A stretch of DNA of 43,433 nt, taken from assembly GCA_001724265.1 (NCBI GenBank), contig MEDY01000430.1, forward strand, positions 1 to 43,433, written 5' to 3'. Shown piece by piece: positions 16,735-40,053 of this stretch. Source of the DNA: Rhizaria sp. SCN 62-66 (lineage: Eukaryota). Position numbers and translations under genes: made by a program. Within the stretch, counting starts at the first letter, position 1, and each line of letters begins with the position of its first letter. The notes under the pieces are model-generated. The model saw only the letters and a list, made by a program, of their open reading frames with translations, was not told the DNA's origin and did not search any database.

Positions 16735-17240
16735 GAACTTTCTGAAGGACACAAATGGGAAAGAATTGAAGGAGGCAAGGAGGTATGGTTCGCACTGTGA
16801 GCGGTTGGAAATTGTCACGATTTGTTGACATGTCAGTCTGCCACAAAAGCGCAAGAAAACTTATTAAGGAACAAAAATCACAACATCATAACAGTTTTTT
16901 ACAATGAAATGCTGTTTTACGACTCGTACGAAGCGTTGTTTAGCATGTTGCCTCACTGTCCTGCTTGGACTCAAACGAAACCGGGCTGTGACTGTGAGCG
17001 ATCCGAAGGAGCAACGAAAAGGATTACTTCAGCTCATCGACCCAGAGCAGAGCTACGTCGCAAGGCTTAAGCACTCGAAGTGCCACCATTTGTCCGTTGT
17101 TAAGTCTAACAGGCAAATTTTCAGGTCATAACCTTTATTTAAATCACAATCTCTATCAATAGCACCCAACAACGTCACTCATGACGATTTCTTCAACGCC
17201 CCTATTCCTCTTCTGCAACCTCGCTTGTAGCTAGCGATCG

Positions 17241-18532
17241 ATGCGTCTCCACAACCTCTTGCTCGCTGTCCTGTGCCTTGCTATCTCATCCACGGCTCTT
17301 GCTGACGGCTCCACATGCCGCGTTCTTGCCCTCTCCGGCGGTGGCGACAAGATCTCGTACGAGGTTGGCTTCCTGGACGTGATCATCAAGGAGCTCCCCG
17401 GAAAGGATGTGCGCTGGGACGTGGTCACCGGCATCTCCGCCGGTTCCATCGGCGCCGCGCTCATGTCGACCTACGACCTGGGCGACGAGAAGGCCCTTGC
17501 TGCGGACATGGTCAACTTTGTTGAGACTGTGAACGCGTCGAGCGTGTACTCGAACTGGCCCGCGGGCCCCGTCGACGCCCTCATCAACAAGCCCGCCCTG
17601 GTGGACGCGTCCCCCATGCGCACGCTGCTCGACAAGCGCATCTTCTCCCGCCCGCGCGTCACCTCGCGTTCCGTCGTTGTCGGTGCCGTTGACATGGGCA
17701 CTGGCGAGATGGAGCTCTTCTCCGAAAAGGCCCCCGACCTGGCCGCGGCCGTGCACGCCTCGGCGTCGTACCCCGGCGCGATGGCGCCCGTGCCGGTCGC
17801 TCTCGAGCGCGCCACGGGCAACGCCACGGCGCTGCTCAACGATGGCGGCGTGTGGCAGGCATTCCTGCTTGACGAGGGCATCCAACGGTGTCTCACCAAG
17901 GGCTACCCGCCGTCGAGCATCATCGTTGACCTCATCATGTGCGACCGGCTCGACTACCCCGCCGTGGACATCGGCTCCATGAAGACGCTGGGGCTCTTCA
18001 TGCGCTCCACGCTTATCGCGCGCACGCAGAGGAACTTGCGCGTGATTGCGCGCGCGAAGCGTGAGTACCCGCAGACGCTGTTCCGGTTCATGGCGCAGCC
18101 CTCCACGCCGCTGCCCAGCATGGGGCTCGAGTTCAATCACAAGTACGTCACATCACCCGAAATCATGATAGTCTTTCTCATTTTTCTTGAATGTATGCAT
18201 TATATAACTATGTTTCTTTTAAAGTCTACTGTATGTTTCACTTACGTTTTGTTTCTTGTTCTTGTTCTTGTTCTTGTTCTTGTTCTTGTTCTTGTTCTTG
18301 TTCTTGTTCTTGTTCTTGTTCTTGTTCTTGTTCTTGTTCTTGTTCTTCTTGTTCTTGTTCTTGTTCTTGTTCTATGACTGCTTGCTCTAGGGTGATGATG
18401 GAGATGATGGAGCTGGGCCGCCAGGACGCGTACAAGACCCTCGGCAGGTTTGGCGCCGATGGCAACATGGCCGCTGAGACTGAAGAGCTGCTCGAGGCCT
18501 ATTTGCGTGATGAGGACAAGCTTGAGCTTTAA
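17241..18532 (+). CDS. Secreted patatin-like phospholipase (exons 17241-18142, 18391-18532)
   Basis: Signal peptide; VLALSGGGDK glycine-rich loop, GISAG nucleophile elbow, DGG catalytic Asp. Intron 18143-18390 (GTACGT...CTCTAG) gives the C-terminus KVMMEMMELGRQDA...LEL-TAA. Confidence 0.9.
18250..18373 (+). repeat. Intronic (TTCTTG)n microsatellite
   Basis: About 20 hexamer copies inside the patatin intron. Source of the spurious VLVLVL, SCSCSC and EQEQEQ ORF tails. Confidence 0.95.
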
Positions 18533-19264
18533 GCGAAGCAGAACTTGACCAAACTAATGAAGTTAACTTTTGTATTTCTCTTCCTGGTCGGAGTGAATGC
18601 TAGGCTCTAGCCTCTTGCTGAAAACTGGTGTGATCACATTTCAGTATGTGATCCTTTCTAAGTTGTGGTTCAAACTTTGTTTGATTTGATTCTTCTCTCT
18701 CCCGGTCCCTCGTGCTATTACACTTTTCAGCAATTCTATGCAAATCTTCGCGGTGGTTGACTTTCGTTTACATATTCTGCTATTACCATTGATATTCTCA
18801 GTGATTAACTACTTATACGGTTCAGTTTACATCGCGCTAAATTGTGAACTTTTCTTTATTTAGTCTTTTTTATTCCACACGCCGCCTACCCCACCCATTT
18901 ACTCACGCCCGCTAACGTGACAATGTACAATCTGTGTGTCATTCAAAATAATACACTCCTTTGTGAGATTGCACCACTGAGCAAAATAAAATTAGAGTGT
19001 TGATGTCTCATTGTCGCGGTATGCCTCTTAGCATAGACGCGGACTTTTCTCATCGGTCTAATCGGTCTGGGCAGTAACCAAGGTAACTTGTGACTGTGAG
19101 CATCCTGGCAAAACGAAGAATGATTGCGACGAGATGCACATTTTAAACGTAAGGGTAGTTTTTATTATCAGTTAAAGAACGCAGTGCTATTTTCCGACCA
19201 TTCCTTGACAAAGTATGACTTAATTAGGTCCCGTCTGTCGATAACAATCTAAATCATGCGTGTC

Positions 19265-22200
19265 TTACTGGAGCAGTGAGGTATTCACACGATCATCAGT
19301 CGCGTCAGTAACCGTCGCTGCTGGCAACACAGGCCCCCCAGCCGCAGGCGCACTCGTGCTCGCACTGTTTGCGCGTTCGCGTTCAATCACCGCGCGCTCC
19401 GCAGCTACCATGTCAGCCTTTAGGGCTTCGAACGCGGTCGCAGACAACTTAGCCAGATTGAGCGTCGCATAACGACCACCGACTCCGGCGCCCGCGGCCG
19501 AAGCACTGACTGCGCCAGAGCCAGCGCCAGCAGCTGGGCCGGGGCCGAGAGCAGAGGGGCGACGCAGACCAGCGCGCGCGGTTAAAGTCGGTGTCCCAGT
19601 CCCTGCAACAGTCACATGCGTCGTTGTTCCAGCCGGTGCTCCTGTGCTGGTGGTTGCGGGCGCTGCTGCGGCGGCGCGAGCGAGTGCGAGGTAGTCGTTG
19701 ACTAACACCTCGTTGCTGGCGCCGGCGATCGTGCTCCCATTCGCAGCGTCAGCTGTCGCAGCGAGGGGTTGGCTGAGAGTCGTCATGCGCGTGTGCGCTT
19801 GCTGCTGCGCGTGCGCGCGCGCCACGGTCGCGGGCAACGGCGCGTACACACTGCTCACCGCGTCGCCGACACCGACGTCGACGCCCACATTTGAGGGGAT
19901 GACGGGGACGGCGCGCGACGGGCCAGTCAGACTATTTGCAGCCGAGCGCGAGTTCGCACTTGTGCTCGCGTGTGCGCTTGCGTCGGGGCCGGGACTCGGC
20001 GTGCGTGGCGGCAACAGCGGCGCCGGCAGCGCTTGCAGCCCACAGTCGCTGCCCCGACCCGGGCCCTTGCCCGCGTCCATAGCGCCCGCCCGCGCTCTGG
20101 CCGTGACGCCGTCCACGGCCGCCGGGGCGGCAGAGGAACCGAGGCCCGCGGCCGAGGCGGCTGCGCGCGCGCTGCCCATGGTGCCCATGAGCCGGTGCCG
20201 CGCCAGCAGCCGCGCGCGCATGCCCGCAACTAGCGCGTGCGCTGCTGGGTCCAGGCCTTGCTCCGCTGCTGTTGCAAGGTCGTTCGCGTTCGCGCCAGAG
20301 GCAGCTGCCTGAGCGGCGTACGCGTTCCTGATTGTGTGCTTGTTGACGGTGGCATTGGCGGCGAGTTGCATCGTGGCGGCGCGCTCCTTGGCGCGCAGCA
20401 CACGCTCGCGCACGGCCGCAAACGCGCTCGCAACGGACTCGGCACTGGAGCCCGCGCCCGCCTGCTGCTGGTGCTGGTCTCCTGCTTGAGCCGCAGTCCT
20501 CGGCAGCAGCGCGTCGAACGACGTGCGCAGCGGCGTGCCGGGCAAGGACTGTTGTCCAGCGGCACCAGCACTGACACTCAAACTCGCGCTTGCGCTCGGT
20601 CGCGTCGGCGTATCGCCCCCGGGCGCGGCGCCCGACGCCGAGGCAAGCGCGACGGGCGAGAACGCGCCGCGCCCGCGCACAGGTGAGCCGGGCTGCGCCT
20701 GCGCCGGAAGGGGCTGGAACGGGCTGGCCGTTGCGGCCGCCGCAGCGTTGGTGTGGCTGTTCGCCGCCACAGTGAGCGGCGAGCGCGGCGACATCCCCGC
20801 AGCCGCAGCCGCGGCAGCGGCGGCGTGAAATGGCGAGCGCGCGTGCATGAGGTCGATGCCCCGCGCGCGCGGCGAACCGAACACGCGCCGCGAGCTCAGC
20901 AGCGGGGACACCACGGCGCCGCCGCCCAGGAGCGCGGCGGAGGCCAGCGGCGGGCTAGCGGGCGGCAGCGCGGGCAGCGGCAGCCCGAGCGCTTCGCCCC
21001 ACGAGACGGGCTGCGCGGCTGGCAGCGGGGGTGGCGGCGGCGGCGAGGCCGCATCGTCGTCGCCGAAGCTGGCGGGTAGCGGGGGCGGCGGAGGCACGGC
21101 GTCGTCCTGCGTGCCCGCGTCGTAGACCAGGCTCACCGTGCCGTACTCGCCGTACCCGGCTGCGGCCTCCGCGTCCTTCACCGCACCATCGGCGCTCTGC
21201 TTACCACCCTGCGGCGGCGAGCCCCAGTCGAGGGCGCGCACGGGCCCGCCTGACAGCGATAGCGAGAGAGACCGCGGACTGGCCAGCGCGGTGGGCGAGC
21301 CCGCGAGGGCGGCGGCCCAGCCGGCCGAGTCGACCAGCCCCATCAGCGCAGACGGGCGGCGCATCACCGCGCCGCGGCGCGCCGTCGACGGCGGCGCGCT
21401 AGGCTGCTGCTGCTGCTGCTGCTGCGGCTGTTTCTGTGCGTGCGTGCCGGCAAAGCCAGTGCCGTCGGACTCGGGATACGGCAGCGGCGGCGGGGGCGGC
21501 GGAGGCACGTCTGAGCCGTCGCCCGACTCCCCGCCCACAGCGACAGCGCCCGCGTCCGCGTCCGCCTCGGCCTCGGGCAGGGGCAGCGCGGAGCACTCAA
21601 GCCGCGGCAGCGCGTCGCGGCCGTCAGTGTCTGCGCCGGCGGCCGCGGCCGAGGCGAGGCGCACGGGGTGGCTGTGCGCGTGGGCGAGCGTGCGCGGCAG
21701 CGGCGACTGCAGCAGCGCCGCCGACCCGCTGTAGCGCGGCGACAGCGGCAGCGGCAGCAGCGGCAGCGTCGCCGTCGCGGGCAGGCCGGCCGCGATGGCG
21801 GTGCCCGCGACTGAGGCCCGCGCGGCGGGGCTGCTGAAGGCGCTGTTGTTGTCAAACTCCCTCGCGTGCGCGTCGACGTCGGCCTCTCCAGCTGCGTCTG
21901 CGGCGTCTGCGGCGGCGGCGTCGCTGGCCGCGTTGGCGGCAACTGCGGCGGCGACGATGGCCGCGCACCGCGCTAACGGGCTGCCCACCGCGCCCGCGGG
22001 GGCCAGAGGCGTCGCGTCCGCCGCGCTCGCGCTCGTGCCGGCCCGCGCGCGCGCAGAGGCGACCGCACTCGCACTCACAGTCGCGGGCGAGGCCGGGGAA
22101 GTCGGCACCTGCAGCGGCGGCGGGGGCGGGGGCGGCGGCGACAGCGACCAGCGCCCGTCGCTGCGGCGGCGGCGGCGCGCCGACTGGAGAAGCGACTCGA

Positions 22201-24736
22201 CCTGCGGCGACGGCGGCTGGCTCCCGCCGGGCAGCGCAACCGACAGCGCCGCGGCGGCCGCGGCGGCGGCGGCGGCCGCGGAAGATGACGGGAGAAACGG
22301 AGAGGCAGACAGCGACGGCTGGGGCTGCAGCTGCTGTGGGGACAGCGGCGGCGCCTGCGGGTGCTGCGGGGGCGGGGGCCCGGGCGGCGGCGGTGGGGGC
22401 GGCGACTGCGCCCTGTCCACCCCACCAGCGCCTGCGCCAGCGGTAAGAGCCGCGCTGGAAGCCGTACTGAGAGGAGAGCTGATGCCTGGACTGGAGACGC
22501 TGGCGCTGCTCGTCCTGCCGTGTCCCCCAGCGCCCGAGTCCCCGTTACCGTAGGCGAGCGCCTGAGTGCGCGCAGCGTGCGCGCCCGCATCGTTGCGCCG
22601 CGGGTGCGTGACAGTGGTCGTGGCGCGCGCGCGCTGGAAGTAGCCCGCGCCGCCTTCGAGCCCGCGTGGCGAACCCAGCACGCTATACACGTCGCCCCCC
22701 GCGGCGCCCCCGCCCCCGCTGGCGGCGGCCCCGCTGGCGGCGGCGGGCGCGGGCTTGCGCATGACAATCGCGGTTGCGCCCTGCGCGAACGAGTCGACGA
22801 CAAGGTCAACCCAGAACGGGTGGCTCTTAAAGCGCTGGAACGAGTCGTTCTTCATCAGCCGCTCAACCTCCTTGCCCGCGCGCAGGAGCGCGTCCATGGC
22901 GTTCTCCACCGGCCCGCCCAGCTCGTAGTCGAAGTCGAAGTCGTCCAGCAGCGCCGCGTCGTCGAACTCGTCCCCCCAGTCGTCGTCGGTCATAGCGTGT
23001 CCATGGTCGTGCGCACGGTCGCTGGGGAAGAAGTCGCCGCCGTCGGTGGCGGCGTCGTCATCGCCCTCGGGCAGCGGCGGCGGCGGCGGCGGTGGACTCA
23101 GCTCGCCGTCGAACTCAGGAGACAGCGCGGCGTCGCTCGAGAGGCCGTTGCTGTTGCCCTTGCCAGTGTTACTGGCGGCGTTGCCGGCGTCCGCGCTTCT
23201 CTGGGGGTAGAAGTACGTCACTCCGTCGTCTTCGTCGTCGTCCTGGGCCACATCGGGGCCCGTGGTCGCGGCCGGCAGCGCGTCCAGCGTGTCGGCATCG
23301 CCCTCCGGCAGCACGCCCTCCGGCAACGCGCCCATCGCCGCCGCGGCGGCCGCCTCCATGTAGGACGCGCCCGTGCGCATCTCCCAGTGCGCGATGCGGG
23401 CCTCGATGCGCTCGATGCGCGCGTCGGCGGCGGCGAGCGCGGCCGACAGCTCGGCCACGGCCGCCGCGGTCGCCGCAGAGGCGCGCGAGTCGACGTTAAC
23501 CTCGCGTGCGGCCTTGGCGCCGATGTATGTGTGCGCTACCATGGTGGCGAGCGCGGCAAAGTCGGTGACGAGCGCGGCGACCTCGTCCGTGAGCCCGAAG
23601 TGCAACCCCGCGGCCCGCTCGCGCGCGCGCACGACGCAGATGTCGCTGTACAGCGCATACAGCACCTGCACCTCGTGCCAGAAGTCGACGTTCTCCTCCG
23701 AGTGCTCGAGCCGCAGGAGCCGCGCGAAGTGGAAGAGCCCCACAGGATGCGACAGCACGGCGAAGAAGTCGGCCCCGTCGGCGAGCGCGAAAGCCACGGC
23801 GCGCGTTTTGGGGGAATACTTGGCCGCCGCGTTCAGCGTCGGCGCGCCCACAGGGACAGGGGCGTGCGTCGCGGCGCGCGCGCGGGGCGTCGCCGCCACC
23901 GACGACGGCAACACGCCAGTCGCAGTTGCCGTCGCAGTTGCTGCTCCGTGACCGTGACCGTGGCCATGACCGTGGCCGTGGCGGGCTGGGGTCCGGGCCG
24001 GCGTGGCCGCGGCGGCGGCTGCGGCAGCGCCGTTGTTGGCGTTGAAGCCGGCGGCAGAGCGCACGGGGGTCTGCGCCGGCGCGAAGCCGGGACGCGTGTA
24101 ACCTGGCGAGTGTCCTGATGACGACGCTGAGGCTGATGCAGCCGAGGCGGCTGCTGCTGCTGAGGTGATAGGCCCGGGGACGCGGGGCAGCGACGAAGTA
24201 ACCGTGGGCGGCGAGAAGAACCGTCCGCTGCCCGTGCGCCCCGTGCCAGCACCAGTGCCCGGCCCTGCTGCTGCTGCTGCTGCTGCTGCTGTTGTTGTTG
24301 CGCCTGCCCCGGCGCGGGCGGTGAGAGGTGCGGCCGAGCCCGCGTGCGCAGTGTACCCGCGCGCGAACGGAGACTGCAGCGGGCCGTGGCCGTGCGCATG
24401 CGACGCGGCGGGGCCGCCGCTGCTGCTGGCCGCGGCGGCCGCGACGGAGAAGGCTGATGAGGAGGAGGCCGACGTGGCCGTCATCAGAGGCGGGCGCTCG
24501 GGGCCTGCTGCGCGCGGGGACGCGAGGAACAGTGCAGAGGGAGCAGTCGCACGGAGGTGCGGAACAATGAGCTCGGGTCCAGCATTGCGGCGGGACGCGG
24601 CAGTGGGCGAGGAGAAGGACGGCGGCGGACTCAAGTTAGAAGCTTGCGAGCTGCCAGCGGATCCCGTCGTCGTGTCACGACTCGCCGTGTTGAAGGTCTG
24701 CAGCAGCGTCGGGCGGGACTAGAACCGCTGTGACAT
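19265..24736 (-). CDS. RGS-domain protein with polyproline tracts (~1823 aa if the in-frame TAG at 24721-24719 is read as sense)
   Basis: RGS motifs FFAVLSHPVGLFHFARLLRLEHSEENVDFW, YIGAKAAREVNVDS and EVERLMKNDSFQRFKSHPFW (22811-23767). ATG at 24736 is in frame via one TAG; TAA stop. The start is less certain than the domain. Confidence 0.8.
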
Positions 24737-25483
24737 ACTGCCCACACTAAAATGCGATTGAAACACAAGGATAGCGTGACAAGAAGACTGAGTGTCAGGT
24801 GTGGCACGCGATAATTGCCTCAAATCAGTTCGAAAGGGGCGCGTGTTGCCGTTTGGCTTTGTGATCAGAATATCTCTTTCAAAAATCCGTCAATGTAAAT
24901 GTGAAATTTAAAAACAAGACAAACCAGAGATATAGTCTAACATAATTCAATTATATCGTCGTTACAGAGAGTAGACATGCTGATTTCAGCAAGATTGGCA
25001 GCGGACTGGGAGCCGTTGAGACTGCGACTGGTCGAGCATACGAGGACACATGGGAGAGAGATTTGAGACTGTATTACAGGCGTCTATGAAAGCTTAATAC
25101 CCACAGAACGAGAGATAGATACAAGATTTGCCCCTCTTTCACATCCGGGCACCGCGCAATTCAGCGCGCGAGCCCCCGGGCAGGCGCTGTCGGAGTTATG
25201 AGACGAGCGGAGGGAAGAGGGACGAGGGGCAGCAGACTAATGTAGCCAGGGCGACCGGTCTCGGTCGTCGCGCCACGCGAGCAGGCAGCGCGCTCAACAG
25301 TGCTGAGTAGGGAGCTGGCGTGCGGCGGACGACGCGGCCGATCTAGAGAGCCCTCCAACCCAGGGCGCGGCGCGGGCGCGTCGCAAGCAAGGGCGGGACA
25401 GGGTCTCATCAGGAATAGAGAATGATTGAGGGGACAAGGAGTGGAGGAGGACGGAGTCAGCATGCGCGCGTTGCACGTCGCGC

Positions 25484-25922
25484 TTACTCGCTGGCCTGGG
25501 CAAAGGGGTTGGGGATCTCCTTGAGCCCCTCGGTGGGCGTGATGGTCACCACGGCCGTGCTGCGGCAGACGACGAAGCCCAGCGCGCGAGTCTTGTCGCT
25601 CGTCACCAGCGGGTCGCTGGGGTCGCGAAGGCGCTCCACGGCGTTGTCGAGAACGATGTTGATGCGCTTGTCCCAGCCCTTGAGGATGCCGGTGACTTCG
25701 CGGCCGCCGATGAACTTGACCATGACCTCCTGGTCGATGTAGCGGTTGAAGTCCACCGCGGGGGGCGCGCGGGCCTTCTGCTCGTGGGGCAAGAGCGGAC
25801 AAAGCAGATGGAATATAGCGCCACAAAGAAAAGTTAGCGGGAATAACTGGGCAGAGATAGAAAGAAACTCACGTAGTGATTGTTATGAAACATACCTTAG
25901 TGGAGTCAGCGTCCTCAGACAT
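25484..25922 (-). CDS. LSM7: U6 snRNA-associated Sm-like protein LSm7 (exons 25922-25896, 25777-25484)
   Basis: DFNRYIDQEVMVKFIGGREVTGILKGWD..INIVLD...LRDP...TRALGFVVCRST...EIPNPF is the Lsm7 signature. Intron 25895-25778 (GTATGT...GCAG). Confidence 0.92.
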
Positions 25923-26585
25923 GCGAACGAGCTGGGGAAACGAGAAGTGGTGGAAGGGTCGTTGTTGAGTGAGAATCGTGAGTATTCGAAGTACGATTTC
26001 AAAGAGAATCTCGACTCCGGGTGCACAAATATAGAAAAAGTCAGATATCTAAGCTCAACGGCATATACCATATTTCAACAGCAGACAGTTGCAGCGGATT
26101 CTGATATCACTGCTCAGCTTTGAAAATGGCTGATCTGAGTGCGATGCTGGACGGGGCCCGTTGGCCGCTCGTGGTGGCTGACCAAGGCTCGCCAATGCAC
26201 CGTGCAAAAATACATTTCGTACTCAGGCAGTCTGAGAACAAAGACGATAAGTATAAAAACAATATGTATGTGATAAAATATAGATGTATTCAAGTGGCAG
26301 TAAACCTTTCCCTCTTAAAAAAAGAAAGCAATAACCAGGATTGCTTCAATAATTCCGCAATGCGCCGTCCCATCGCTCGTCTCACAAGCACGCACCATTA
26401 CATGCCGTCATAGGCAGGCGTGACGCTGCTGCAGTCAGCGGGCTAACCGTGCGGCACAGTTGAACCTACCGACTGCTACAAAGCGCATGCGCATGGCGTA
26501 TGAGGGAACGAACGAGGGCTGTGGACACACAGAAAATGATTATGAAAAAATATGATTTAACATGAATGCTAATGTAACCTTACGA

Positions 26586-26879
26586 CGCGTGGCGGCACTG
26601 CGCTCTAGTTTCCTCGCTCCACAGCAACAATAACAACGTACAAATAGCAACGACGAGCCGCGATGACAATATCACGAGGATTTGTTTGTTCGAATCTGCC
26701 GTGCCGGTAGCGTAGCCTTGACAGCCAGGACAAACATCGTCGTGATATGCGGACAGAAAGGACGTAGCTTGATCCTTAAAGATATCGAAGTGTGACCATA
26801 TCGCGTTTTCGTTGCAGAGTTGTACACGTTGTTATTGTTGCTGTAGAAGGAGTAAACAAGATGCGTTGCCGCCGCCGCG
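26586..26879. other. Intergenic imperfect inverted repeat / long hairpin with nested inner stem
   Basis: Perfect 19-bp core 26621-26639 with 26826-26844, imperfect extension to arms of ~75 nt, inner stem 26669-26690 with 26729-26748. Confidence 0.8.
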
Positions 26880-27279
26880 CTCCCATAATAGTTAAGACAC
26901 TTCGCTGCTTGCTACTGGTCTCGATGTAAATAGAATGAAACAAATGTAGTAGTGGTAATATTCGTAGTAAAAAAGATCGTGAAAAAAATGATATGACACC
27001 GTGAAAAGCCATATCATAAAAAAAGGCAGTCAAGAGCCGGAGCTATTTCATGTTCTTGTCCGTGCTCTTCCACTCGCGCGCTGGCTGCTGTACAAGCGCA
27101 AAGTGCGCCAACAAATCTCTGTCTGACTACCGTGGTCGATGCTTATAAATGCTGTTATGAAGTTCATTGAGACAGCAAATCATACAACAACGCAATATCA
27201 AACAGAATTAAGAAAGAACAACCACAATCGTGAATGTTCAACACGCGCACCAAGCCGACCCCAAGTCACATTTGTACAT

Positions 27280-30200
27280 TTAATTGTGGTTACCGTTGTT
27301 GCCGCTGTTGACATTCTGCCCATTGTGGCCGTGGTGCCTGTTGTCAACGAGCTGGAGACTGCCGTAGCCGCCGTAGCCGTGCCCGACGGTGGCCGCGGCG
27401 AGCCCGGCCTCGTGGCGCAGCGCCTCCAGGTCGTAAGCGCTCCAGTCGGTGACGGTGCCGCTGGGCGTTACGTTGACGGACTGGTTGCCGAGCATGGCGA
27501 GCAGCGCCTCGTGCTCGCGCGTCTCCTCGGCCTCGCGCTCCGCAACCACGCGCGCCTGCTTCACCCAGTCCAGCGTGGCGAGGTAGTAAGACAGCGCGCT
27601 GCACACGAACATGATCGCCACGACCATCGCAATCCACTGCCCGAACAGCCCCCAGCCGCGCGCCGTAACCTCGCACAGCTCCGCAGTGTGCAGGAACACG
27701 ACCGTGGCGCCTGCGTGCTGGGCCTCGGCCGCCGCCGCGTGGGAGACCACGGCCGACGCGGCCAGCCCGGCCTCGAGACCCACGGTCGCGTTGCCCGTGA
27801 AGACGTAGCCGGCCACCTCCGTCACCGGCGCGGCGAGGGTCGTGCTATGGGCGAGGGTGGCGTTGGCGGCCGCGTGCACCGCCGTCGTAGCGGTTTCGGG
27901 CGTCGTCGCCGAAGTGATGATGTCCTGTTGAGACGGTAAACAACAACAAAAGAAGAACATTATACACGTGAGCTAGGAATCAAGAAAATACCTGAAAATT
28001 GATTGATAAAATACAATAAAACAAACAATGGAAACCACACAATTATCATACATCCAAGAATGATGCACACAATACAACCCTCTTGCAAAAGTGGCGCGAG
28101 AGATGTGACGGACCTTGACGTCGCTGAGGGGGATGCTGCGGAGGTGCGAGCCGGTCTTCATGGCGAGCACGTACGCCAGGGGCAGCCCGACGCCCCAGTA
28201 GGCAAACGAGTAGACGTAGAAGCCGACGTCCTGAAGTCCGCAGCCGCGCAGCACGCCCGCGAGCATGCCTTGGAGCCCGTCAAAGAAGCAGTAGACGCAG
28301 ACGAGGGGCAGCGCCGTGGCCATGGCATGGAGCACGGCGGGCGAGTCGGTGAAGATGCGCCCCACGCCTTCGGAGAAGGCCCACACGCCCAGGCAGATGA
28401 TTAGTTCGAGCGCAATCGTGAGCCCGAACGAGACCTTGGCCGTGAAGCGCGCGTCCGCCGGCTTGTCCGAGCCCAGGAGCGCGCCGACGCGTGCCGAGGT
28501 GACGATGGCGAGCGCCATGGGCGCCATGAAGAGCAGGATCATGATGTTGAAGATGATGCTCTGCGCGCCCAGCACGGCCGAGCCTTGGAGGCCGGAGATC
28601 GCGGACTGCAGCTCCAGCCCCCACCACTCGGCGCACAGCATCGCCGTCGAGGGCAGCGCGTACGAGAGGAATTCCCCCCAGTCGCGCAGCGCGGCGCGCG
28701 ACCAGCGGCTCCAGGTTTTCTTGTAGAAGCCCGAGACGTAGAGGTAGCCCAGCGCGGCGGCGAGCATGCCCCAGGCCGTGCACACCGTGGTGTATGCGAT
28801 ACCGATGTAGCCCATCTGCAACCAGACGACAAAGATGACGTTGCAGACGAGCGTAATAGCCACGCCCGTGCACGTAATATACATGACCGGGATGGTGTTG
28901 TTCTGCGCCTGCAGGTACCGCTTGATCGCGTCAAGATATGACATGGCCGGGATCGCCGCTGCCGTGGCCTTGAGGAAGCGTCCCGCGTGCGCGCACGTCT
29001 TCTTGGGAAAGCCCAGCATGCGCAGGATCGGCTTGCCGTTGAGGCGCAGCGCGATCATGGGCCCCATGAGCAGCGTCACGATGAGCAGCGCGCGCTGGAA
29101 GATGTGGCCCACGCGGCGGTAGTTTTTGGCGCCGAAGGCCTGCGCGATTAGAGTGTCCATGGCGCCCATCATACCCATCACCAGCGACAGCGTCGTCACG
29201 TTGATGAACAGGATGCCCAGCGCGCCCGCGGCCAGCTCTTCCTCGGTCAGGTGGCCCAGGAAGATGAGGTCCACGATGTCCACCAGGTGGTCCGCGAAGA
29301 AGCCCAGGATGAGGGGGAGCGCGACGGTGAGCTGCTCGCGGACCTCGGTGACCACGGATGGCGCGAAGAGCTCGGCCAAGTACGACAGCGCGGCGTCGCG
29401 CGAATTGGAGAGCTTGTCCATGAGCGAGGGGCGGCGCACATAGCGCATCACGCCGTCCGGCCGCGCCAGCAGCGCCGCCGCCTCCTGAGTTCTAGGCCCC
29501 CCATGAGTACCCAGCTCGGGGTCACCGGTTCCAGCCGCGGCGGCAGCGGCGAGGACGGCGTCGGCGTCGGTGGCGGCAAGCGCGGCCGACATCGCGGCGT
29601 GCACCAGCGCCATCTCCGCCGCGTCTTTGCCGCCGCTGTCCTTGCCAGCTGCGCTGTTGCTGTTGCTGTTGCTGTCCGAGTGCAGCCGCAGCGTCTGGCC
29701 CTTGCCGCCGCCGCCCGCGCCGGCGGCCGCCGCGTTGGCCGTGGCCGTAGCGACGGCGTCGAGCGCCTCGGGTCGCGCGATGAGGTGGTCGGCCAGCACC
29801 TGGAGTTGCTGCTCGCGGCGCTCCGCCGCGGCCACGGCGGCGGCGTTCGCGGCCGCCAGCGCAGGCCGCGCCAGCGGCAGCAGGCGCGAGATGGGTGCCG
29901 CCGCGGCGCGCGGGTACAGCGCAGGCTCGTGCGGCACCGCCGGCGCGGCAGTCACAGTCGTGGTCGCCGTCGTGTTGATGTTGGCGGTGATGTTGTTAAT
30001 GTTCGTGTTTGAAGAGGCGGCCGAGACGGGGGGCGCGCGGTAGACGGCGGTGATGCCGTAGGCGTAGTCGTCGGCGGGGATCAGGCCGGCACGCGCGGCG
30101 CGGGCCTCGGAGAGCACGCGGCCGACGGGGAGTGTCCCGCTGCCGTCGTCCTCGTCCTCGTCCTCATCGTCGTCATCGTCATCATCGTCGTCGTCATCGA

Positions 30201-30507
30201 GGGAGGACGAGCTCACCGACGGCTGCGACGCCTCCGCGGGCAGCTATGCGGGCGCTGCGTTCGAGTTGGAGAGAGAAGGCTGGGTCCCCTATGTGCTCAG
30301 TGCCGCTACAGGCGCCGCGGGGGCGGCCGGGGCGACAGGGGCGGAGGGGGCGGCAGCGAGGGCGGGGGAGGAGGTCAGACCCTCTACGGCCGGCGAAGAG
30401 GGCGCGACGGGGGCCGTGGGGGCGGACAAGCCAGGCGGCTCGGAGTCCTTGGGGGACTCCATGCAGACAACGTCTTGGGGGCGCACGGTGCGCTTTTTGC
30501 GGGGCAT
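27280..30507 (-). CDS. MATE family multidrug/toxin efflux transporter (exons 30507-28114, 27924-27280; two in-frame TAGs in the N-terminal extension)
   Basis: MATE motifs FLGHLTEEELAAGALG, MDTLIAQAFGAKNY, RYLQAQN, EWWGLE, ARVGALLG, GVLRGCGLQ, YWGVGLP and GLFGQW...LDW. Phase-0 intron 28113-27925 (GTCCGT...AACAG). ATG 30507 is in frame through TAGs at 30291-30289 and 30246-30244. Confidence 0.88.
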
Positions 30508-30933
30508 AGCTGGAGAGGAGCAGGAGGAAATTCAAAGCGAGCACGAAGGGGTTGTGACGAAGGCATGAGGAGCGCACGGAGAGGGTCAAAAAGGGCTAGT
30601 GTATCATTTGTGGCGAAATCATTAAATAGAATTCAACACTTGTCATATCAGTGAGTGCGTTTTTACTTCCGAACACCGTATTGATGGCCACCCTGAGGTA
30701 GGAGTCGGACTCCAATTTGAAGCGCGGGTCGATTGACGGGCGAAGCAAAAAAAGCAAAGCCGCGTGCTCACGCCACTTGACTGTACTCAACATTCAGCAG
30801 GTGCGATCGCAGCAGAACAAATACAAATTGCGTTAAAATGCGATTTTTTAAATAAAGTAGTAAGTGGGCTATACATAAAAAGCGGGTTTTCCGAGTTAAG
30901 CGCCGGTTACACATACGAAAACTGTGAATTAGT

Positions 30934-33371
30934 TCAAAACTCGGACTCGAAATCAAAAGCATTCTCGCCCCCTTCGGCCGCGTCCCCCTCGCCATCCTCC
31001 TCCTCGGCGTCGTCCTCGGACTCGTACAGCACGTCGGTGTGGTCGAACGCGTCGGGGACGGCGCTGGCGAAGGCGTTGTGGGCCGTGATGTGCTCGACTA
31101 ACAGCTCGGCGACGCTCGCCATGACGTGGCTCTGCAGCCGCGCCGACGCCGCCAGCACCGCCTCACCGCCCGCTGCCGCGCCAGCGCCCGCCGCCGTGCT
31201 AGTGGCAGTGCCCGCACCGCCCACAGTCGCATCGGGGCCATCGGCTGCTGCAGCCTGGCGGGGGAAGAGCTGTGCGACGTGCGCGGTGACCTCGAGGTGC
31301 AGCGAGGCCGGGATGGCTTCGTCGGAGGGCGGCAGCAGCCGGAGATCGGGACCCGACCGCCGCTCCTGCTGCGCCGTCACCGAGCGGACGGTCTCCTCAA
31401 CCGCGACGGCGCCGCCGCTGACGGGGTCCGCCTGCTGGGTGACTGTGCGCACGGGGACCGAGGACGGAACCGCGGGGTCACGGGTTACCTCGTTACCGCC
31501 GTCGGTCTAGTCACTGCCATCGGTGTTATCAGCGACGATGTTGTTGCTGTTGCTGTTGTTGCTAGCGTCGTGGTTGGGGCGGGAGACAGGGGAGCTGGAC
31601 GCGGTGGCGGGCTCAGTGGAAGGCTCAGGAGAGTGCTCAGCGGCATCAGACTGCCCGGCCACAGCTGCAGGCGAAGGCTCGGTCTCAGTTGCGAGGCCGC
31701 CAGTGACAGCCCGGTAGACGTTGTCGAGATCGTTTTCACATGTATCGCAGATGTTGTCTTCGGCAGTCGAGTTGCCAGCAGCAGCCTTAGCGTCGACATT
31801 AGCAGTATCAGCAGCGTTGTTGTTGTCATCGTTGTTGTTCTTGTTGTTATTGCTAAGGTTGCCGTTTGTGCTGTTGGTGCCGATTTCGTTGTCGGCGCAG
31901 GGTGTGTTGCCGCCGCTGAACGTGTAGACGTCGTCACCCACGCTCGCGTCAATGACGGCGGCGTTGTTGCTGCCAGCGCCGTCGTCCGCGCTGTCACTCG
32001 CAGAGCGAGCGACATCAGCGTCGGCACAGTCGGAGTCAGCGTCCGACTCGGACTCGGGCTGCGACACAAAGCCGTTGGCAGCCTCGTTCTCAGCCTCATT
32101 TTCAGTATCTTGCTCGACAGCAGTACGCTGCGCCTGAGTCTCAGCCCCAGCCTCCGCCTCTGCCTCTGCCTCGGCCCGCATCTCGGCCCTGAGCGCGCTG
32201 CGCTGCGCCTCGGCGGCCTCCTCGCCAGCCAGGACCAGTCCCTCGGCTGCGACCTCGGCGTCCGACGCCCACCAGAAGCGGAACGAATCCTCAGCCTCGG
32301 CCTCCGCAGCCGCAGCGGCGTCCGCAGCGGCGTCCGCAGCGGCCTCATCTGCGTCAGCGTCGGCGTCACCGCCGTCGGCGGCGGTGGCGGCGGCGGTGGC
32401 GGCGGCAGTGGACTGGGGGTCAAGGTAGAGGGACTGCGGGTCAGCGTCGCGGGAGCTGATGATAGTCGCAACCACGACAGGTACAGCCGCGGCCGCAGCA
32501 GCAGCCGCAGACTCCTCGCTCGGGGCCGCAACGCTCGTCGGACTCGAGCTCGAGCTTGATGTCGAGTTGCCGTTGACGCTCGAGCCCGCGCCATGAGCGC
32601 GGGCGGCCATGGCGTTGGCAGCCGCAATCGCGAGCGCCGTGGCAGAGGCCAGGGCTGCGTCAGTAAGCTCAGCGGCCGTCTCCTCTCCAGCCCCAGCCCC
32701 AGCCCCAGCCCCAGCCCCGGCCTCGGCCGCGGTCGCCGCAGCTGTCACACCAGCATTTATCGCAGCAGCCGAGCCCCCAGTGTTGCCCTGCAAGAGCGCG
32801 TCGCGACGCCGCTGCAGCCGCAGCAGCGCCTCCCGGACCCTGGCGGCGCTCGCGGCCCACTGGCCGTCCGCCCCGTTCGCCGCCGCTGCGGCCACCAGCG
32901 CCGCCGCCGCCGCCGCCGCCGTCGCACCAGCGCCCTGCTGTTGCGGTTGAGCCTGCGTGACTGCCGCTGCGAGTGCGGCCGCCGCCGCGGCGGTGGCGTC
33001 CCGCGCGGCCTCCGCGGCGGCGACCTCCGCGGGCGGCCCCGCGTGGCCGCGGGCGACGTTGCGGTCGTCCCACTGCGCCTCGCGCGAAAGCTGCACCTGC
33101 ACGCGTGTGCGGCGCGCGACCTCGACGCCCACGCGGCGGCAGCGCGGGCCGCAGCAGAGCCAGCCGGAGACGGAGAGTGAGAGGCGGAACAGCGGCCGCG
33201 AGCGCAGCAGCCGCGGCAGCGACAGCACGACGACCGTCGACACGATGTCCGCGCGCAGCTGCACGTGCTGCTGGTACGCGCCGGCGGGAGCGTCGCTGGA
33301 GCGGGTGCGGGAGTCGCCGTCGCCGTAGTCGTAGCCGTAGCCAGGAATGCTGGCGTTGCCGCTGCTGCCGC

Positions 33372-33404
<33 letters not shown>

Positions 33405-36400
33405 CGCTCTGGGCGTTGCGCCGCGCCTGCCACACGCGCGCCTCCTCGCGGGCCCGCGCCAGCGCCGCGGCCAGCAGCTCATGCGACTCCGGCCGAGAAC
33501 CAGCGCCCGACTGCAACTGCGACCGGTGAGACTGTAGGGGCGAGCGCGACTGCGCCTGCGGATGCGGCGTCTGCGTGCGCTGCACTGCGCCCGTGCCGTC
33601 CCCCACCAAGTCCTCATTCGCACTCGCAGATGCACTGGCGCTCGGCGCGCTGATGATGGTGCCCCGGGCGGGCACAGAGTCAGCGTCGGCATTGGCAGGG
33701 TAGGTACAGTTGGCATCCACAGCTACAGCGACGCCGCGCACGCGACGAGGGCGGGCGAGGGCTGCGCTGGTGGTCGGGGACAGGAGCAGCTCCTCGCCAC
33801 CGTGGCCGTAGCTGTGGCTCGCGTCGCTGCGATCGCTCTGCGCAGCGGGTGTGGCTCCGCCGGTCAGCAGCGACAGCGTCGACGACAGCGACGACGAGGT
33901 TCGAGAGTGACCGTGAGCAGAACCTGCCTGGCCGTGAGCAGAGTGACCGTGGGCCGAGTGACTGGGAGCGGGGTACAGCGTGGCAAGCGCAGGACCCCAG
34001 GGGAGGCGGCGCCAGTGAGCCGTGTCGGCCAGGGCCACGGCGTCGGCGTCGTCACTTGCAGGGACCGGAGGACGCGCGCCCCCACTGCCGCGACCCCGTG
34101 CGCCGGCACTCGTCGCCCTCAGAGTCAGAGTCGCAGTTGCACTGGTACTTGTTGGAGTATTCTCAGTCGCAGTCTCAGTCTCAGTCGTAGTGCTGCTTTT
34201 AGTGTCGTTGACAGCGCTTAATGCAGCAGCAGCAGCAGAGACATCTGCAGCAGAGCCGCTCGTCAGCGCAGCATCAGCCTCTGATGCTCCTGTTGCCACA
34301 GTTGCAGTTGCTGCGTCAGCCTCTGGCGTAGCTGCCGCGGCCACAACCTCTGCAGTGACAGGCTTGGTCTCTGTGCGCGTCGCCATCGCCCCAGCCGCAG
34401 GGCTCGCGTCAGCGTTGCCACCCGTCACACTGCTCCTCGTAGTTGCCCTCTCAGCCAGCGCGGGCTTTCTCTGAGCAGCGGGCCGATCCTGCTCCTTCTT
34501 CCGCGCAGCCCGCTCTCGCTGGTGCGCGGCCCAGGCCAGCGCCTCCGCGGCCCGGGTCTCTGCGGCATCGGCGTCAGCGCGCGCCGCAAACATGGTCCAC
34601 CGCTGCACGTCGTAGTCAACGTCGTCACCGGCAGTAGCCTCCCTCGTGTTAGCCCTCGCACTGCTACTTGAGTCAGCAGCAGCAGCAGGGGCGCTCGCGC
34701 TCGCGCTCGCGTCTGCGCTCAGACTCGAGCTCAACTGGGGGCTCGCGCCTCCCCTCTCGCCCTCGCTGCTGCCGTCCTCTCTGCTGCCGTCGGCGCCGCG
34801 ACCGGCGCCGTGACCGCTGCCGCGCGAGAAGTCGAGCGCGCGGCACAGCAGCATCGTGCGCCGCCGCTCGCGCCACTCTTGCGCGCGTGCCTCCTCGCGC
34901 CGCGCCACGTCCCCCTCGCCCCCCGCACTTGCACTCGCACGCGCACTCACACTGGCGCCGGCTCTGCTGGAGCTGGCGCCGCCCTGCGGGAGGAGCGGGC
35001 CGCGGCAGAGCGGGCACGTCGAGGCGTGGCGCGCCAGCTCCAGCAGGCACGCGGCGTGCAGCAGGTGGCCGCAATGCAGGCGACGCACGCCCGCGTCGAG
35101 CGCAGTGAGGCAGATGGCGCATTCGTCCGCCACCGGCGGCGGCGGCAGCGGCGGCGGGCCCGGCAGCGGGGGCGCGAACCCAGCCGAGCGCGCGCCATCT
35201 CTGTCGTTGCCATCGATATCATCATCGCTGTCACTGCCAATAACATCAGCATCCGCACTGTCGTCACCATCGCCATCGCCATCGTCGTCATTGAGGCCGA
35301 GCTGTTTCTTGCGATCGCGCCTCTCCTGCCGCCTCTTGACCACCCGTTGCTGCCTACGCCACGCCAGCCTCGCCGCGAGCCGCTCCCTGGCAAGGTGCAT
35401 CCGGACGGCGGCCAGGGCGTCCGCCTCGACCGCGGCCCGCTCGGCCTCGGAGACGAAGGAAGGCGCGAGCAGCTGGTCCGCAGGCAGCTCGGGCACCGCG
35501 GCGAGCGCCTCGGCGTGGCGCAGCGAGCTCAGCAGCACGCGCGCGCGCGGCGCCGTGAGCGCGGCGGCGGCGCGCAGGAAGAGCCACGGCGCGACGAGTA
35601 AGTCGACGCGGAACGGGTACGCGTACGCTAGTGACGGCAACAGCAGAACGGCCGGGTCCGTCAGCGGCGGCAGCACGAGGGCGCACTCGCGGCACAGGCG
35701 CGAGAGCGAGTCACCCAGCGCCGCGCCTTGAGACGGGTCCAGCAGCGCGCGGAGCAGCCCCGCGAGCGCCGCGGGCACCATAGGGGCGACGCGGGGGACC
35801 GCGGCGTGCGCCAGCTCGACCGCGAGGTCTGGCCACAGCTGCTCATCGTCGTCGGCGGCGGCACTCCGATCGGCGCCTCCCCGGTCGCCGCCGTTGCCGT
35901 TGCCGCTGCCGTTGCGGTCGTTGTCGGCGCTGGCGCTGGCCTGCGCGAGCGCGTCGCGGAGCGCCGCGTCGGCCGCGCCGGCAGCCGCGCGGTCAGCGGC
36001 GCGTGCAGGCACGAGGATGAAGGCGGCGGACAGGTGGGCCAGCGCCGAGAGCGCGGCAGCGGTGACTTGCACGCTGAGCTCCAGCCCCACGATGAGCGCC
36101 GGGAGCAGCCCTGTGGGCGCGAGCAGCGTGGCGGCAGCGGCGGCGAGCGCAAGGTTGACGCCGAACGAGACGAGGCTGACGGAGGTGCCTCGGTGCAGCA
36201 GCTGCCGCAGCCAGAGCCGGCCTCGAGCCTCGAGCGGCAGCAGAGCGCGCTGCGCCGGAGAGAGCCAGCGCTGCTCGCCCGGCCGCGCCAGCGAGTCGCC
36301 GGGGTAGATCAGGTGGCCGTGCGCGGCCGCACTCGCACTCACACCTGCAGTGGCGCTCGCACCCGCAGGAGCAGCGGCGGCAAGAGAGGGGCGCGGAGGG

Positions 36401-36945
36401 AGGTCTGGGTCGGCACGGGAGAGCAGCGCAGCCTCGTAGAAGGCCAGCGCAACGGCAGCGGGCAGGCGCGCAAGTGAGGCAAGCGACGCAACGCAGAGCC
36501 AGGCGGCGAGCTCGTAGGCGTCGCCCGTGGCGAGGTAGATGAAGAGGCAGAGCAGGAGCCGGCGTAGACCGTGTGCGCCCCCGGCCCCCGCGGCGGCCAC
36601 GGCGGCGCGCGGGCGGGCGTAGACGCGCGCAAGCCGGGCAATAAGCGCGTAGCGCAGCACGCGGTCGGCGGTGAGTACGACGAGCAGCAGGTGCAGCGGC
36701 ACGGCGAGGAAGTGGGTGACGACGCGGGACACAGGCCAGTGCAGCGCGGAGACCGAGTCCCAGGTGCGGAGGAAGAGTAGCGTCAACGCGCCCAGTAGCG
36801 CCGCGATCAGGCGCAGCGAGAACGGAAACGACGGCTAGTCTGCCGAGGCGTCTTGCCGCGCAGCAGCAAGAGCAGCGGCAGCAGCGGCGCTGGCAGCCGG
36901 CTACTGCTGCTGCGGCAGTGGCAGTGGCTGTGGCGCCGGTCTCAT
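30934..36945 (-). CDS. Multi-pass membrane RING-H2 E3 ubiquitin ligase (Hrd1/gp78-like layout), ~2003 aa with three in-frame TAGs
   Basis: Hydrophobic N-terminal segments; RING-H2 CAICLTALDAGVRRLHCGHLLHAACLLELARHASTCPLC (35121-35005). One frame runs from ATG 36945 to TGA 30934, broken only by TAG at 36903-36901, 36837-36835 and 31509-31507. Confidence 0.8.
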
Positions 36946-37602
36946 GTGACAGCGGCGGCCGCGCCGGGACCAGGCGAGAGAGTGTGGTTAAGTGTTGACT
37001 AAGTGTGGGGTCTGTTCTGGCAAGATTGAGTCAGCCCTGATGGGGCAAACGGCAAACAGACTGGGGAGAGAGACGGGCGCAAGGGTGAGTGAGCAGCGAG
37101 TGGGAGGGGAGCACAACGGGCGACGATGATTCCACAGACTAGAGTTGGGGATAAGTACGCAAGTGCGCAGATTTAACAAAGATATACTGAGGAAAATTCC
37201 GCGAAATGTCGATATACCACAGTTGATCTGATAGAAGACGATGCATGATTGACTTGTAGGAAGATATGTGGTACTGACTGGTCAGCCTGGTTCCGGAAGG
37301 CGAGAGGCTGGGGCGCTGCATCACCATTCGGAACACATTAGTATAACACAAGCGTCCGATGATAGATATCATGACACATATGACGATCCAGAATCATGAC
37401 GTTAATGTCTTATTTATCTTTTTATATTCCATAAATCTGCGCCTGTATTGCTCCTCAGAGGTCACGCGCTCTGACGAGGTCAGGTCACTTTAAGCCGTTG
37501 CAGCTCTGCTTTCGCAGGCATCTCCTCCCTTCCCCTGGCTCACCACTGACACTTTTTTCACTCTGCACTCTTAAAATCTACTTTTACCATGACAGATTCG
37601 AT

Positions 37603-40053
37603 ATGGCTGACCGCTCTAGTACGTTTACACCCACATGTCCAGCCAATCTTCCATTTTCACCACACCCCATTCGCTCACGTTTTCACCCGCCCTCTCCTCG
37701 CTACTGTACGCAGTCACCGTCAAGTGGAACAAGAACACTTACGACGTCACACTCACTGCCGACGAGTCCATCGACTCGTTCCGCGCCAAACTCACAGCTC
37801 TCACCCAGGTTCGTCGTAGGCACTGCTCTACTCGCCACAACCCAGCTCCACCACCAACGGTTTATTGCCCTCTCCTCTCTATCTCACCCCAATCTCACCA
37901 TATACCTCCATAACTTGCCAAACACACTTACCACTCTCTTTTTGCAGGTCCCCGCCGAGCGCCAGAAGCTGATGCTCAAGGGCAAGTTCGTCAAGGACAC
38001 GGCCGCCGTCGCCGCCGTGGCCGCGGGCGCGCAGATCGTCCTCATGGGCACCGCCGACGACGCGCTCCTCGCCGCCCCCGCGGCCGCCGTGGTCTTCGCC
38101 GAGGACCTTAGCGCGGAGCAGAAGGTGCGGCTTAACGTCGCCAAGGACCCGGCCGGCTTGGTGAACCTGGGCAACACGTGCTACATGAACGCCGTCGTCC
38201 AGCTGCTTCGCGCCGTCCCCGAGCTCCACGACGCGTCCCTCACGCACATGCGCCTCGCCAACGCCGCCGGCACCGCGGGCGCGGCCGCCGCGGCCCCCGG
38301 CGCGAGCGTGGCGGCGGCGGCGCTGGCGGGCGCGCTGGCGGGCGGCCCCCACGAGCGGCTGGCGCTGGCCTTCGGGCTGCTGATGGACCTCGCCGACAAG
38401 ACCGACGGCTCCGTCACGCCGCTCATCTTCCTCAGCGCGCTACGCAAGGCGTTCCCACAGTTCGCCGAGATGAGCCGCTCGGGACAGGTTGGCGCGCAGC
38501 AGGACGCCGACGAGTGTCTCACACAGGTACGCCATCAAAAACACGCCAACAGGCTAACTATGCTGTGATTTTTTGCTGTGTTAAAATATTTTGTCATTTT
38601 GCATTGGTTCTCGTTCTAAGGAAGTTTGTACGAATTGAATGTCAAATCATACTAAATAATATATGAATGTATATATTATTGCAACGTGTCGCTATATTCC
38701 ATGCTTATCTGCTCTGTGTATCTCTTTTTAATCTCCCCTGTTTTTTTTTTTTTTAACTCTGTGCCACTCATAACTCGTGCCCAGCTCTTCACGGCGCTGG
38801 CCGACAAGATGCGCCACGTGCCCTCCGACAAGTCCGTGAGCCGCGGCATGAGCAACTGGATCGACATGCTTTTTGGCGCCGAGATGCGCAGCTCCCTCTC
38901 GTACGTTACCATTTACTTGTCTGCTGTAATGAGATTTTCCGCTTAAGGAGAATGTTTGTTCATGACCACGCATGGTTCTTTTAAAACTTTGCACAACTAT
39001 ATTTTAACAGCAAGAGTACATGATTCATGTATGCTGAATAATGTCTGTAAATGCTTTAATATATCTTTGCTTCATTCCACGTAGGTCCCCCGACGCGCCG
39101 GCCGAGGCGCCCGTGGTGGAGTTCGAGACTGTGCGCCGCCTGAAGTGCTTCATCTCCGGCGAGGTCAACTTCATGGTCGAGGGCATCAAGCTCGCGCTCA
39201 AGGAGGAGATCACCAAGAGGTACGTATGAGTCCAGATATCACTGCTCAAAGAACAATTACAAGCGTTGCTTACTTCTGACTGCACGTTGTGGCGAATTTG
39301 CATATTGTTGACCTTATTTTCATTTTTCGCATTATTTTCATTGTTCTCTGTGCCTCTAGGTCGTCGTCTCTGGGCCGCGACATTGTCTACACGCGCACCA
39401 GCGGCTTAACTTCGCTGCCCCCGTACCTCACGGTGCAGTTCGAGCGCTTCTTCTGGAAGTCGGACAACGGCAAGAACATCAAGTCCAAGATCATCCGCAA
39501 GGTCGCATTCCCGGTGCGCTTCGACGTGTTCGACATCACCGAGGGTGACCTTAAGGCCTCGCTCAAGGCCCGTCGCGCGATCATGATCGCTGAGCAGGAC
39601 GTCAAGCTCGGCCTCCCCGCGCTCAAGTCCCCTCATAGCAACGCCGCTGCCGCCAACGGGGCCTCGTCCAGTCTGACTAGCGCCGGCGCCGCGATGACTG
39701 ACGACACTGCCGCCTCCGCGGTGGCGCCGCACCCGCTTACGTCGGGCCAGTACGAGCTGCAGTCTGTTGTTACTCATAAGGGCCGCGACGCCGACTCGGG
39801 CCACTACATCGGTTGGACCAAGCAGGCCGACGGGCGGTGGTTCAAGTTCGACGACGACGTGGTGACCGAGGTCAAGGAGGCCGACATCACGGCGCTGTGT
39901 GGCGGCGGCGACTGGCACACGGCGTATCTCGTCGTGTACCGCCGTGTCGACGACGTCAAGGAGGCCGAGGAGGCCAAGGCCAAGGAGCTCAAGGACAAGG
40001 AGGCCGCGGCCGCCACTGCGGGACAGGAGGGCAAGGTCGAGATTGTCGAGTAA
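37603..40053 (+). CDS. USP14: Proteasome-associated deubiquitinase UBP6/USP14 (exons 37603-37618, 37714-37808, 37948-38526, 38785-38900, 39085-39219, 39360-40053)
   Basis: N-terminal UBL (ITVKWNK...VPAERQKLMLKG...LMGT), Cys box GLVNLGNTCYMNA, QQDADEC, LPPYLTVQFERFFWK, His box THKGRDADSGHYIGW, GGGDWHTAY. Five GT-AG introns keep the frame. Confidence 0.93.

Follow-up and report, generated by a model that had tools for sequence, protein, structure and literature searches.

The window analysed here, a stretch of 43,433 nucleotides (contig MEDY01000430.1 of Rhizaria sp. SCN 62-66), is a gene-dense nuclear contig of a eukaryote, with coding blocks of about 70–78% GC and spacers of about 35–50% GC. 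Pfam recognised a patatin-like lipase, an RGS-domain protein, a MATE transporter, a RING-H2 protein, an intron-split USP14 and an ankyrin protein. Also present are an LSm7-like exon, named by eye from its translation, the start of RPS19 and four further coding blocks without family assignment (G1–G4). Three of these genes, all on the minus strand and encoding the RGS, MATE and RING-H2 proteins, are crossed by in-frame TAG codons, and the subject of this work is whether UAG is translated in them.

The initial annotation reported six such TAGs, and all six are present and in frame: one in the RGS gene (24721–24719), two in the MATE gene (30291–30289 and 30246–30244) and three in the RING gene (36903–36901, 36837–36835 and 31509–31507). 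With only TAA and TGA taken as stops, the frames 19265–24889, 27280–30531 and 30934–36987 contain no internal TAA, TGA or frame break, as had been claimed. Reading through TAG does lead to ATGs at 24736, 30507 and 36945 and to a TGA at 30934, all of which border GC-rich blocks. The tally was incomplete: the MATE frame contains one more in-frame TAG, a seventh (27975–27973), which had not been listed and lies inside an intron. Each of the six TAGs is the boundary of an open reading frame (ORF) of the standard code, so the question becomes whether coding continues across them.

An error in the assembled consensus is unlikely, because DNA contigs of an independent run (X3), from another study and another year, are identical to the window at all six TAGs. 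Records 2, 5 and 8 of this run show 0 differences, with record 5 covering the TAGs at 30291 and 31509 and record 8 that at 36903. The stretch as a whole recurs in runs of the years 2015 to 2025 from bioreactors and wastewater, one of them a polyA metatranscriptome.

Coding signal was scored with a codon log-odds model trained on gene bodies (4,540 in-frame codons), the tested stretches being kept out of the training set; coding windows averaged 0.56 per codon (s.d. 0.20). At three of the TAGs (31509, 30291 and 30246) a frame-specific coding signal is found on both sides, with no plausible intron. The strongest site is TAG 31509–31507, codon 1813 of the RING frame counted from ATG 36945. This TAG closes a standard ORF (31507–36834), and the same frame is then open and coding-like for another 190 codons (31506–30934), up to TGA 30936–30934, with a score of 0.74 per codon and a GC content at third codon positions (GC3) of 0.84. 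In the remaining five frames, a score this high was reached in only 1.3% of 980 windows, and GC drops to 0.24–0.45 directly past the TGA. The continuation is not a separate gene, because its sole ATG lies at codon 128. As a control, we scored the extensions beyond the TAA and TGA ends of other genes, which ran for 5–108 codons and scored between −1.42 and 0.62, at a GC3 of 0.28–0.69; none was coding-like.

Read through its TAGs, the RING gene (36945–30934, minus strand) would encode a membrane RING-H2 ligase (Pfam zf-RING_2, E = 2.7e-9) ending in TGA. Its proposed start, ATG 36945–36943, is the only minus-strand ATG between 37246 and 36900. From this ATG, 14 codons lead to the TAG at 36903–36901 (codon 15), which directly follows CAG CAG CAG, and another 21 lead to the TAG at 36837–36835 (codon 37), three codons ahead of the first hydrophobic helix of the protein. 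Then come 351 codons without an ATG that score 0.51 with GC3 of 0.85 and include several hydrophobic 19-residue windows. For comparison, the first ATG lies 2 to 13 codons into the ORF in genes that start in a single exon (G2, G3a and patatin). Local coding signal is weak around TAG 36903, and we regard both 5′ TAGs of the RING gene as probably inside coding sequence.

The MATE gene (30507–27280, minus strand; Pfam MatE, E = 1.7e-54) comprises two exons and ends in TAA 27282–27280. Its proposed start, ATG 30507–30505, has an in-frame stop eight codons upstream and marks the point at which coding signal begins. The 72 codons from this ATG to TAG 30291–30289 (codon 73) score 0.40 per codon with GC3 of 0.82; TAG 30246–30244 (codon 88) follows after 14 codons, and beyond it lie 210 ATG-less codons with a score of 0.84 and GC3 of 0.90. 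An ORF starting just past TAG 30246 has been recorded from four contigs. The two exons are separated by an in-frame intron of 189 nucleotides (28113–27925; 37% GC; donor AAG/GTCCGT and acceptor AACAG/G, the slash marking the splice point), which holds the seventh TAG. A database search returned six matches, among them a relative from another metagenome (P0006) at 67% identity that runs across this intron position without an insert and has no intron there.

The RGS gene (24736–19265, minus strand; Pfam RGS, E = 3.8e-7) ends in TAA 19267–19265, and its start is uncertain. Its TAG (24721–24719) is codon 6, five codons after ATG 24736. The sequence upstream of the TAG has a GC of 0.49 and no coding signal, and the 78 codons up to the next ATG score just 0.14 per codon. 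A donor-like GTATGT at 24738, with a score of 8.4, overlaps the proposed ATG. When introns were not constrained to be in frame, there were candidates with donor scores of 8.4 and 6.8, and one of these, of 206 nucleotides and 43% GC, ends exactly at the TAG. Whether this TAG lies inside coding sequence is therefore ambiguous.

The ends of the genes show a different pattern. As the initial annotation stated, all 11 use TAA or TGA (7 and 4, respectively) and none uses TAG, a count that rests on our gene models, four of which have no homology support. Coding signal collapses after each of these ends, and no coding frame contains a TAA or TGA. The base after a true stop is a purine in 9 of 11 cases, mostly G, and never C; C follows three of the six in-frame TAGs, compared with 0 of 11 true stops (Fisher P = 0.029). 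A TAG at 14607 was not counted as a gene end, as the coding frame has already shifted there. Separately, G comes after six of the seven TAA stops, so that the tetranucleotide there is TAAG, and TAA is the commonest stop despite a GC3 of about 0.8–0.9.

The best single explanation of these data, and one that we think on balance probable, is that UAG is translated as an amino acid, probably glutamine (Gln), with UAA and UGA as terminators. That UAG is read as sense in some form, leaky or ambiguous decoding included, is likely. The proposal that UAG alone has been reassigned fits better than any single ordinary reading: three of the sites have coding flanks and no plausible intron, two precede a long ATG-less ORF for a membrane domain, and no gene ends in TAG. 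A plain sense codon would not be expected to show the strong clustering of TAGs near 5′ ends. The single assumption that TAG is a sense codon accounts for the RING tail, for both ATG-less N-terminal stretches, for the lack of TAG stops and for the differing stop contexts; in two genes, MATE and RING, long coding stretches would otherwise have no start codon.

Under such a code, the tRNA that decodes UAG would carry the anticodon CUA, having probably arisen by mutation of a tRNA-Gln(CUG) copy, and eRF1 would have a weakened recognition of UAG, as PMC5304391 proposes for other UAG-only codes; UAA and UGA would terminate. Glutamine is the most likely meaning, with a weak hint from the position of TAG 36903 directly after CAG CAG CAG; UAG may instead mean leucine (Leu) or serine (Ser) here.

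Several observations weigh against translation of UAG. Five of the six TAGs occur among the first 88 codons of their frames (codons 6; 73 and 88; 15 and 37; the last of the six being 1813), an arrangement that speaks against plain REASSIGNMENT and would have a chance of about 3e-5 were TAGs evenly distributed. Apart from 31509–31507, the bodies of G1, G2, RGS and RING are free of TAG over about 6,500 codons, most of them of low complexity. Of the three stops, TAG alone has the acceptor dinucleotide AG at its end, and at this codon usage 67–68% of new nonsense mutations would be TAG, with a chance of about 0.1 that six of six are. Eleven stops are a small sample, and the codon model was trained on 4,540 codons of this window alone. 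The MATE relative P0006 is called from MDKLS and lacks the N-terminal extension, and the patatin signal peptide would gain an upstream in-frame ATG if TAG were sense. Neither ARAGORN nor Rfam found a tRNA in the window. The sites lie in non-conserved regions, as had been noted at the outset: around the six, Pfam at E ≤ 1 gave no useful match and none falls in a conserved column, so the amino acid cannot be read from conservation.

Searches for relatives gave little purchase on the TAGs, with no orthologue spanning any of them found for RING or MATE. The N-terminal 1,200 residues of the RING protein, searched against 1.84 billion representatives, returned 264 matches to the RING-finger region, and among the 150 of these listed the best stretches fell within query residues ~510–810. 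The best match (P0011) was rejected as an orthologue, being an unrelated multi-RING repeat protein. The C terminus of the RING protein (388 residues) had no match among proteins of 213–679 residues, a size range that a full-length orthologue would exceed. The top relative of the USP14 exon has 49% identity. An atlas search, a cluster look-up and a comparison of RPS19 with PDB chains did not yield a taxonomic position. A metagenome scan for more sequence of the organism yielded just one contig of 2.3 kb (L001), besides three distant MATE loci, and scans of genome contigs and viral contigs found no further sequence of it.

Transcript data were examined by placing contigs of four runs on positions 19000–38900 at 90% likeness. 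The resulting tables of joints and loose ends consisted mostly of low-complexity cross-matches, and within this noise there was no intron-type joint and no displayed RNA contig across any TAG, a result that weighs neither for nor against a sense reading. The displayed polyA-RNA contigs of one run (X5) lie at 30614–31012 and 36327–36768. Depth of this run is near 0 in two presumed intergenic bins (26304–26967 and 36928–37591), a hint that the library is indeed RNA.

The most serious competing account, which we nevertheless consider unlikely, retains the standard code and invokes unrecognised RNA processing. The 5′ TAGs would then be splice acceptors or lie in leaders, introns or outrons, with translation starting from an upstream exon, from a spliced leader ending in AUG or from a non-AUG codon, and TAG 31507 would be a true stop or the acceptor of a downstream cistron. 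Spliced leaders that donate an AUG occur in flatworms. We located ten introns in the window, about 90–310 nucleotides long (by eye), AT- or pyrimidine-rich, with GTACGT-like donors (matrix scores of 7.5 to 11.5) and 3′ ends in YAG; GC content was measured for the MATE intron. TAG is the acceptor in four of the eight acceptors read, and in three of these it also bounds an ORF: the TAGs at 16506 (G4 exon), at 10784 (G3 exon) and before patatin exon 2 are ordinary 3′ splice sites. A TAG at the 5′ edge of an ORF thus has an ordinary cause in this genome, a further point against translation of UAG, and each site has to be judged separately. Short first exons followed by an intron are also common here (LSm7, USP14 and G4), and processing accounts for the 5′ clustering better than a sense codon does, as well as for the restriction to TAG.

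Judged in this way, the sites divide. The RGS candidates, with a donor of 8.4 at 24738 and the 206-nucleotide segment ending at the TAG, favour processing, although that segment is out of frame with the one upstream ATG checked (by eye). For the two 5′ TAGs of the RING gene, there is no in-frame intron candidate between the ATG and the ORF; lifting the in-frame condition gives a 227-nucleotide candidate with a donor score of 6.8. The MATE leader and TAG 31509 fit poorly. The best donors among in-frame GT..AG candidates that would remove their TAGs score 3.4 for MATE (39 candidates) and 2.0 for TAG 31509 (45 candidates), in segments of 63–76% GC, and donor candidates at these sites reach at most 3.5, compared with 7.5 to 11.5 in real introns. 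The sequence leading up to these TAGs has 63–79% GC and looks coding, in contrast to the AT-rich introns of the window, and TAG 31509 has no preceding pyrimidine tract. In the ordinary acceptor exons of G3, G4 and patatin, an ORF likewise begins right after an in-frame TAG. Those acceptor TAGs, however, end an AT-rich intron with a strong donor, whereas the TAGs in MATE, at the RING 5′ end and at 31509 follow GC-rich, coding-like sequence with no such donor.

As an observation on the introns themselves, their donors are highly uniform, with G at +5 in 10 of 10, C at +4 in 9 of 10 and T at +6 in 8 of 10; examples are 28113–27925, 16700–16504 and 38527–38760.

Somewhat less probable again is that UAG is ambiguous or leaky, a stop in principle that is often read through by a suppressor or near-cognate tRNA according to position or context. 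The concentration of TAGs far from 3′ ends would fit, as would the C after three of the six compared with the G that mostly follows true stops, and ciliates with position-dependent termination are described in PMC4967479. There, in Condylostoma and Parduczia, a stop codon is decoded as sense when it lies far from the 3′ end of the mRNA, a rule that would match the 5′ skew seen here, but the same codon also ends genes, whereas TAG stands at none of our 11 gene ends. TAG 31509 is just 190 codons from the true stop, and the N-terminal sites would require efficient read-through for any protein to be made. A more specific version, which we put forward as a speculation and regard as doubtful, is that UAG is position-dependent in a non-ciliate eukaryote: it would be sense mainly in the first ~90 codons (five of the six sites) and be kept out of gene bodies, and through a scarce tRNA with anticodon CUA it would act as a built-in attenuator or ramp where selected long genes begin, with UAA and UGA as terminators.

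We consider it quite improbable that the TAGs are recent nonsense mutations (from CAG, GAG, TCG and similar codons) that struck dispensable ends of the three genes and became fixed, in a population close to clonal, with flanks that have yet to decay. The expected share of TAG among new nonsense codons and the position of every site in a non-conserved terminal region are compatible with this, and 0 differences over kilobases between run contigs of different years suggests low diversity. Six hits in 3 of 11 genes without a frameshift, TAA or TGA would, however, imply an implausible load genome-wide, and full codon bias persists in the 351 codons of the RING membrane domain and in 210 codons of MATE, all of which would go untranslated under this scenario. 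RNA editing of UAG to a sense codon such as CAG in the transcript would fit the DNA but has no supporting observation and is very improbable: we know of no such nuclear UAG-editing system in eukaryotes, and the run contigs agree with the window at all six sites, although none of the RNA contigs displayed was seen to reach across one.

Returning to UAG as a sense codon, precedents for a change restricted to this codon exist, and those cited in the initial annotation (Iotanema, exLh and ciliates) agree with PMC11687900 and PMC5304391, which add Scotinosphaera and Protocruzia. According to these papers, UAA and UAG almost always change meaning together. UAG is read as Gln, with UAA and UGA as stops, in the fornicate Iotanema spirale, and the same code is used by Protocruzia tuzeti and two phyllopharyngean ciliate lineages; UAG means Leu in the rhizarian exLh and Ser in Scotinosphaera. 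The code proposed here would resemble that of Iotanema and Protocruzia in that UAG alone is reassigned, UAA is kept as the main stop and Gln is the likeliest meaning, and would resemble those of exLh and Scotinosphaera as a UAG-only change outside ciliates with UAA kept as a stop. In the Iotanema and Protocruzia cases, TAG occupies conserved positions across transcriptomes or genomes, whereas our six sites come from a single window and none is conserved.

If true, our reading would add a further case to an already known type of reassignment, in a GC-rich, non-ciliate-looking organism open to tRNA, eRF1 and proteome study. With very GC-rich coding sequence, long AT-rich introns and GTACGT donors, this genome is, in our judgement, unlike those of ciliates. 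The organism is accessible because it recurs in wastewater runs over a decade (2015–2025). The few lineages that split UAA from UAG are natural tests of the limits that tRNA wobble and eRF1 place on code evolution, as discussed in PMC5304391 and PMC11687900. Our literature search found no report of UAG reassignment in a GC-rich wastewater eukaryote, which is not proof that there is none. In practice, gene callers that assume the standard code would truncate the proteins of this organism; the MATE protein in the database begins just after a TAG.

Other features of the window deserve mention. Over the LSm7 exon (25462–25742), contigs of the runs X4 and X5 deviate from the window at ~20 positions (roughly 93% identity), and other contigs of both runs match it exactly elsewhere. 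A co-occurring sister species or strain seems to lie behind these differences and could be used for comparison at the TAG sites.

The G4 block (12360–16503, minus strand) encodes a repeat protein with WH2/thymosin-like LKHV units and contains two frame changes in the same direction. Their junctions, near 14856 and 14161, share the same right-hand junction (TGGTCGCGCACCAGG), and each change looks as though 3n+1 bases had been lost from the full repeat unit. Coding signal is strong in all three frame segments, and the region lies outside the coverage of the run contigs placed on the window. Collapse of repeats during assembly could account for the frame changes, as could decay of the gene or frameshifting.

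Upstream of the patatin gene (17160–17242, plus strand), an ATG at 17181 opens a 17-codon ORF that closes with an in-frame TAG two codons ahead of the patatin start ATG. Under the standard code this is an upstream ORF, whereas a sense TAG would make it an N-terminal extension of the signal peptide. Within the patatin intron is a long (GTTCTT)n microsatellite (18240–18370, plus strand), and the protein has an N-terminal signal peptide and the C-terminal end DKLEL.

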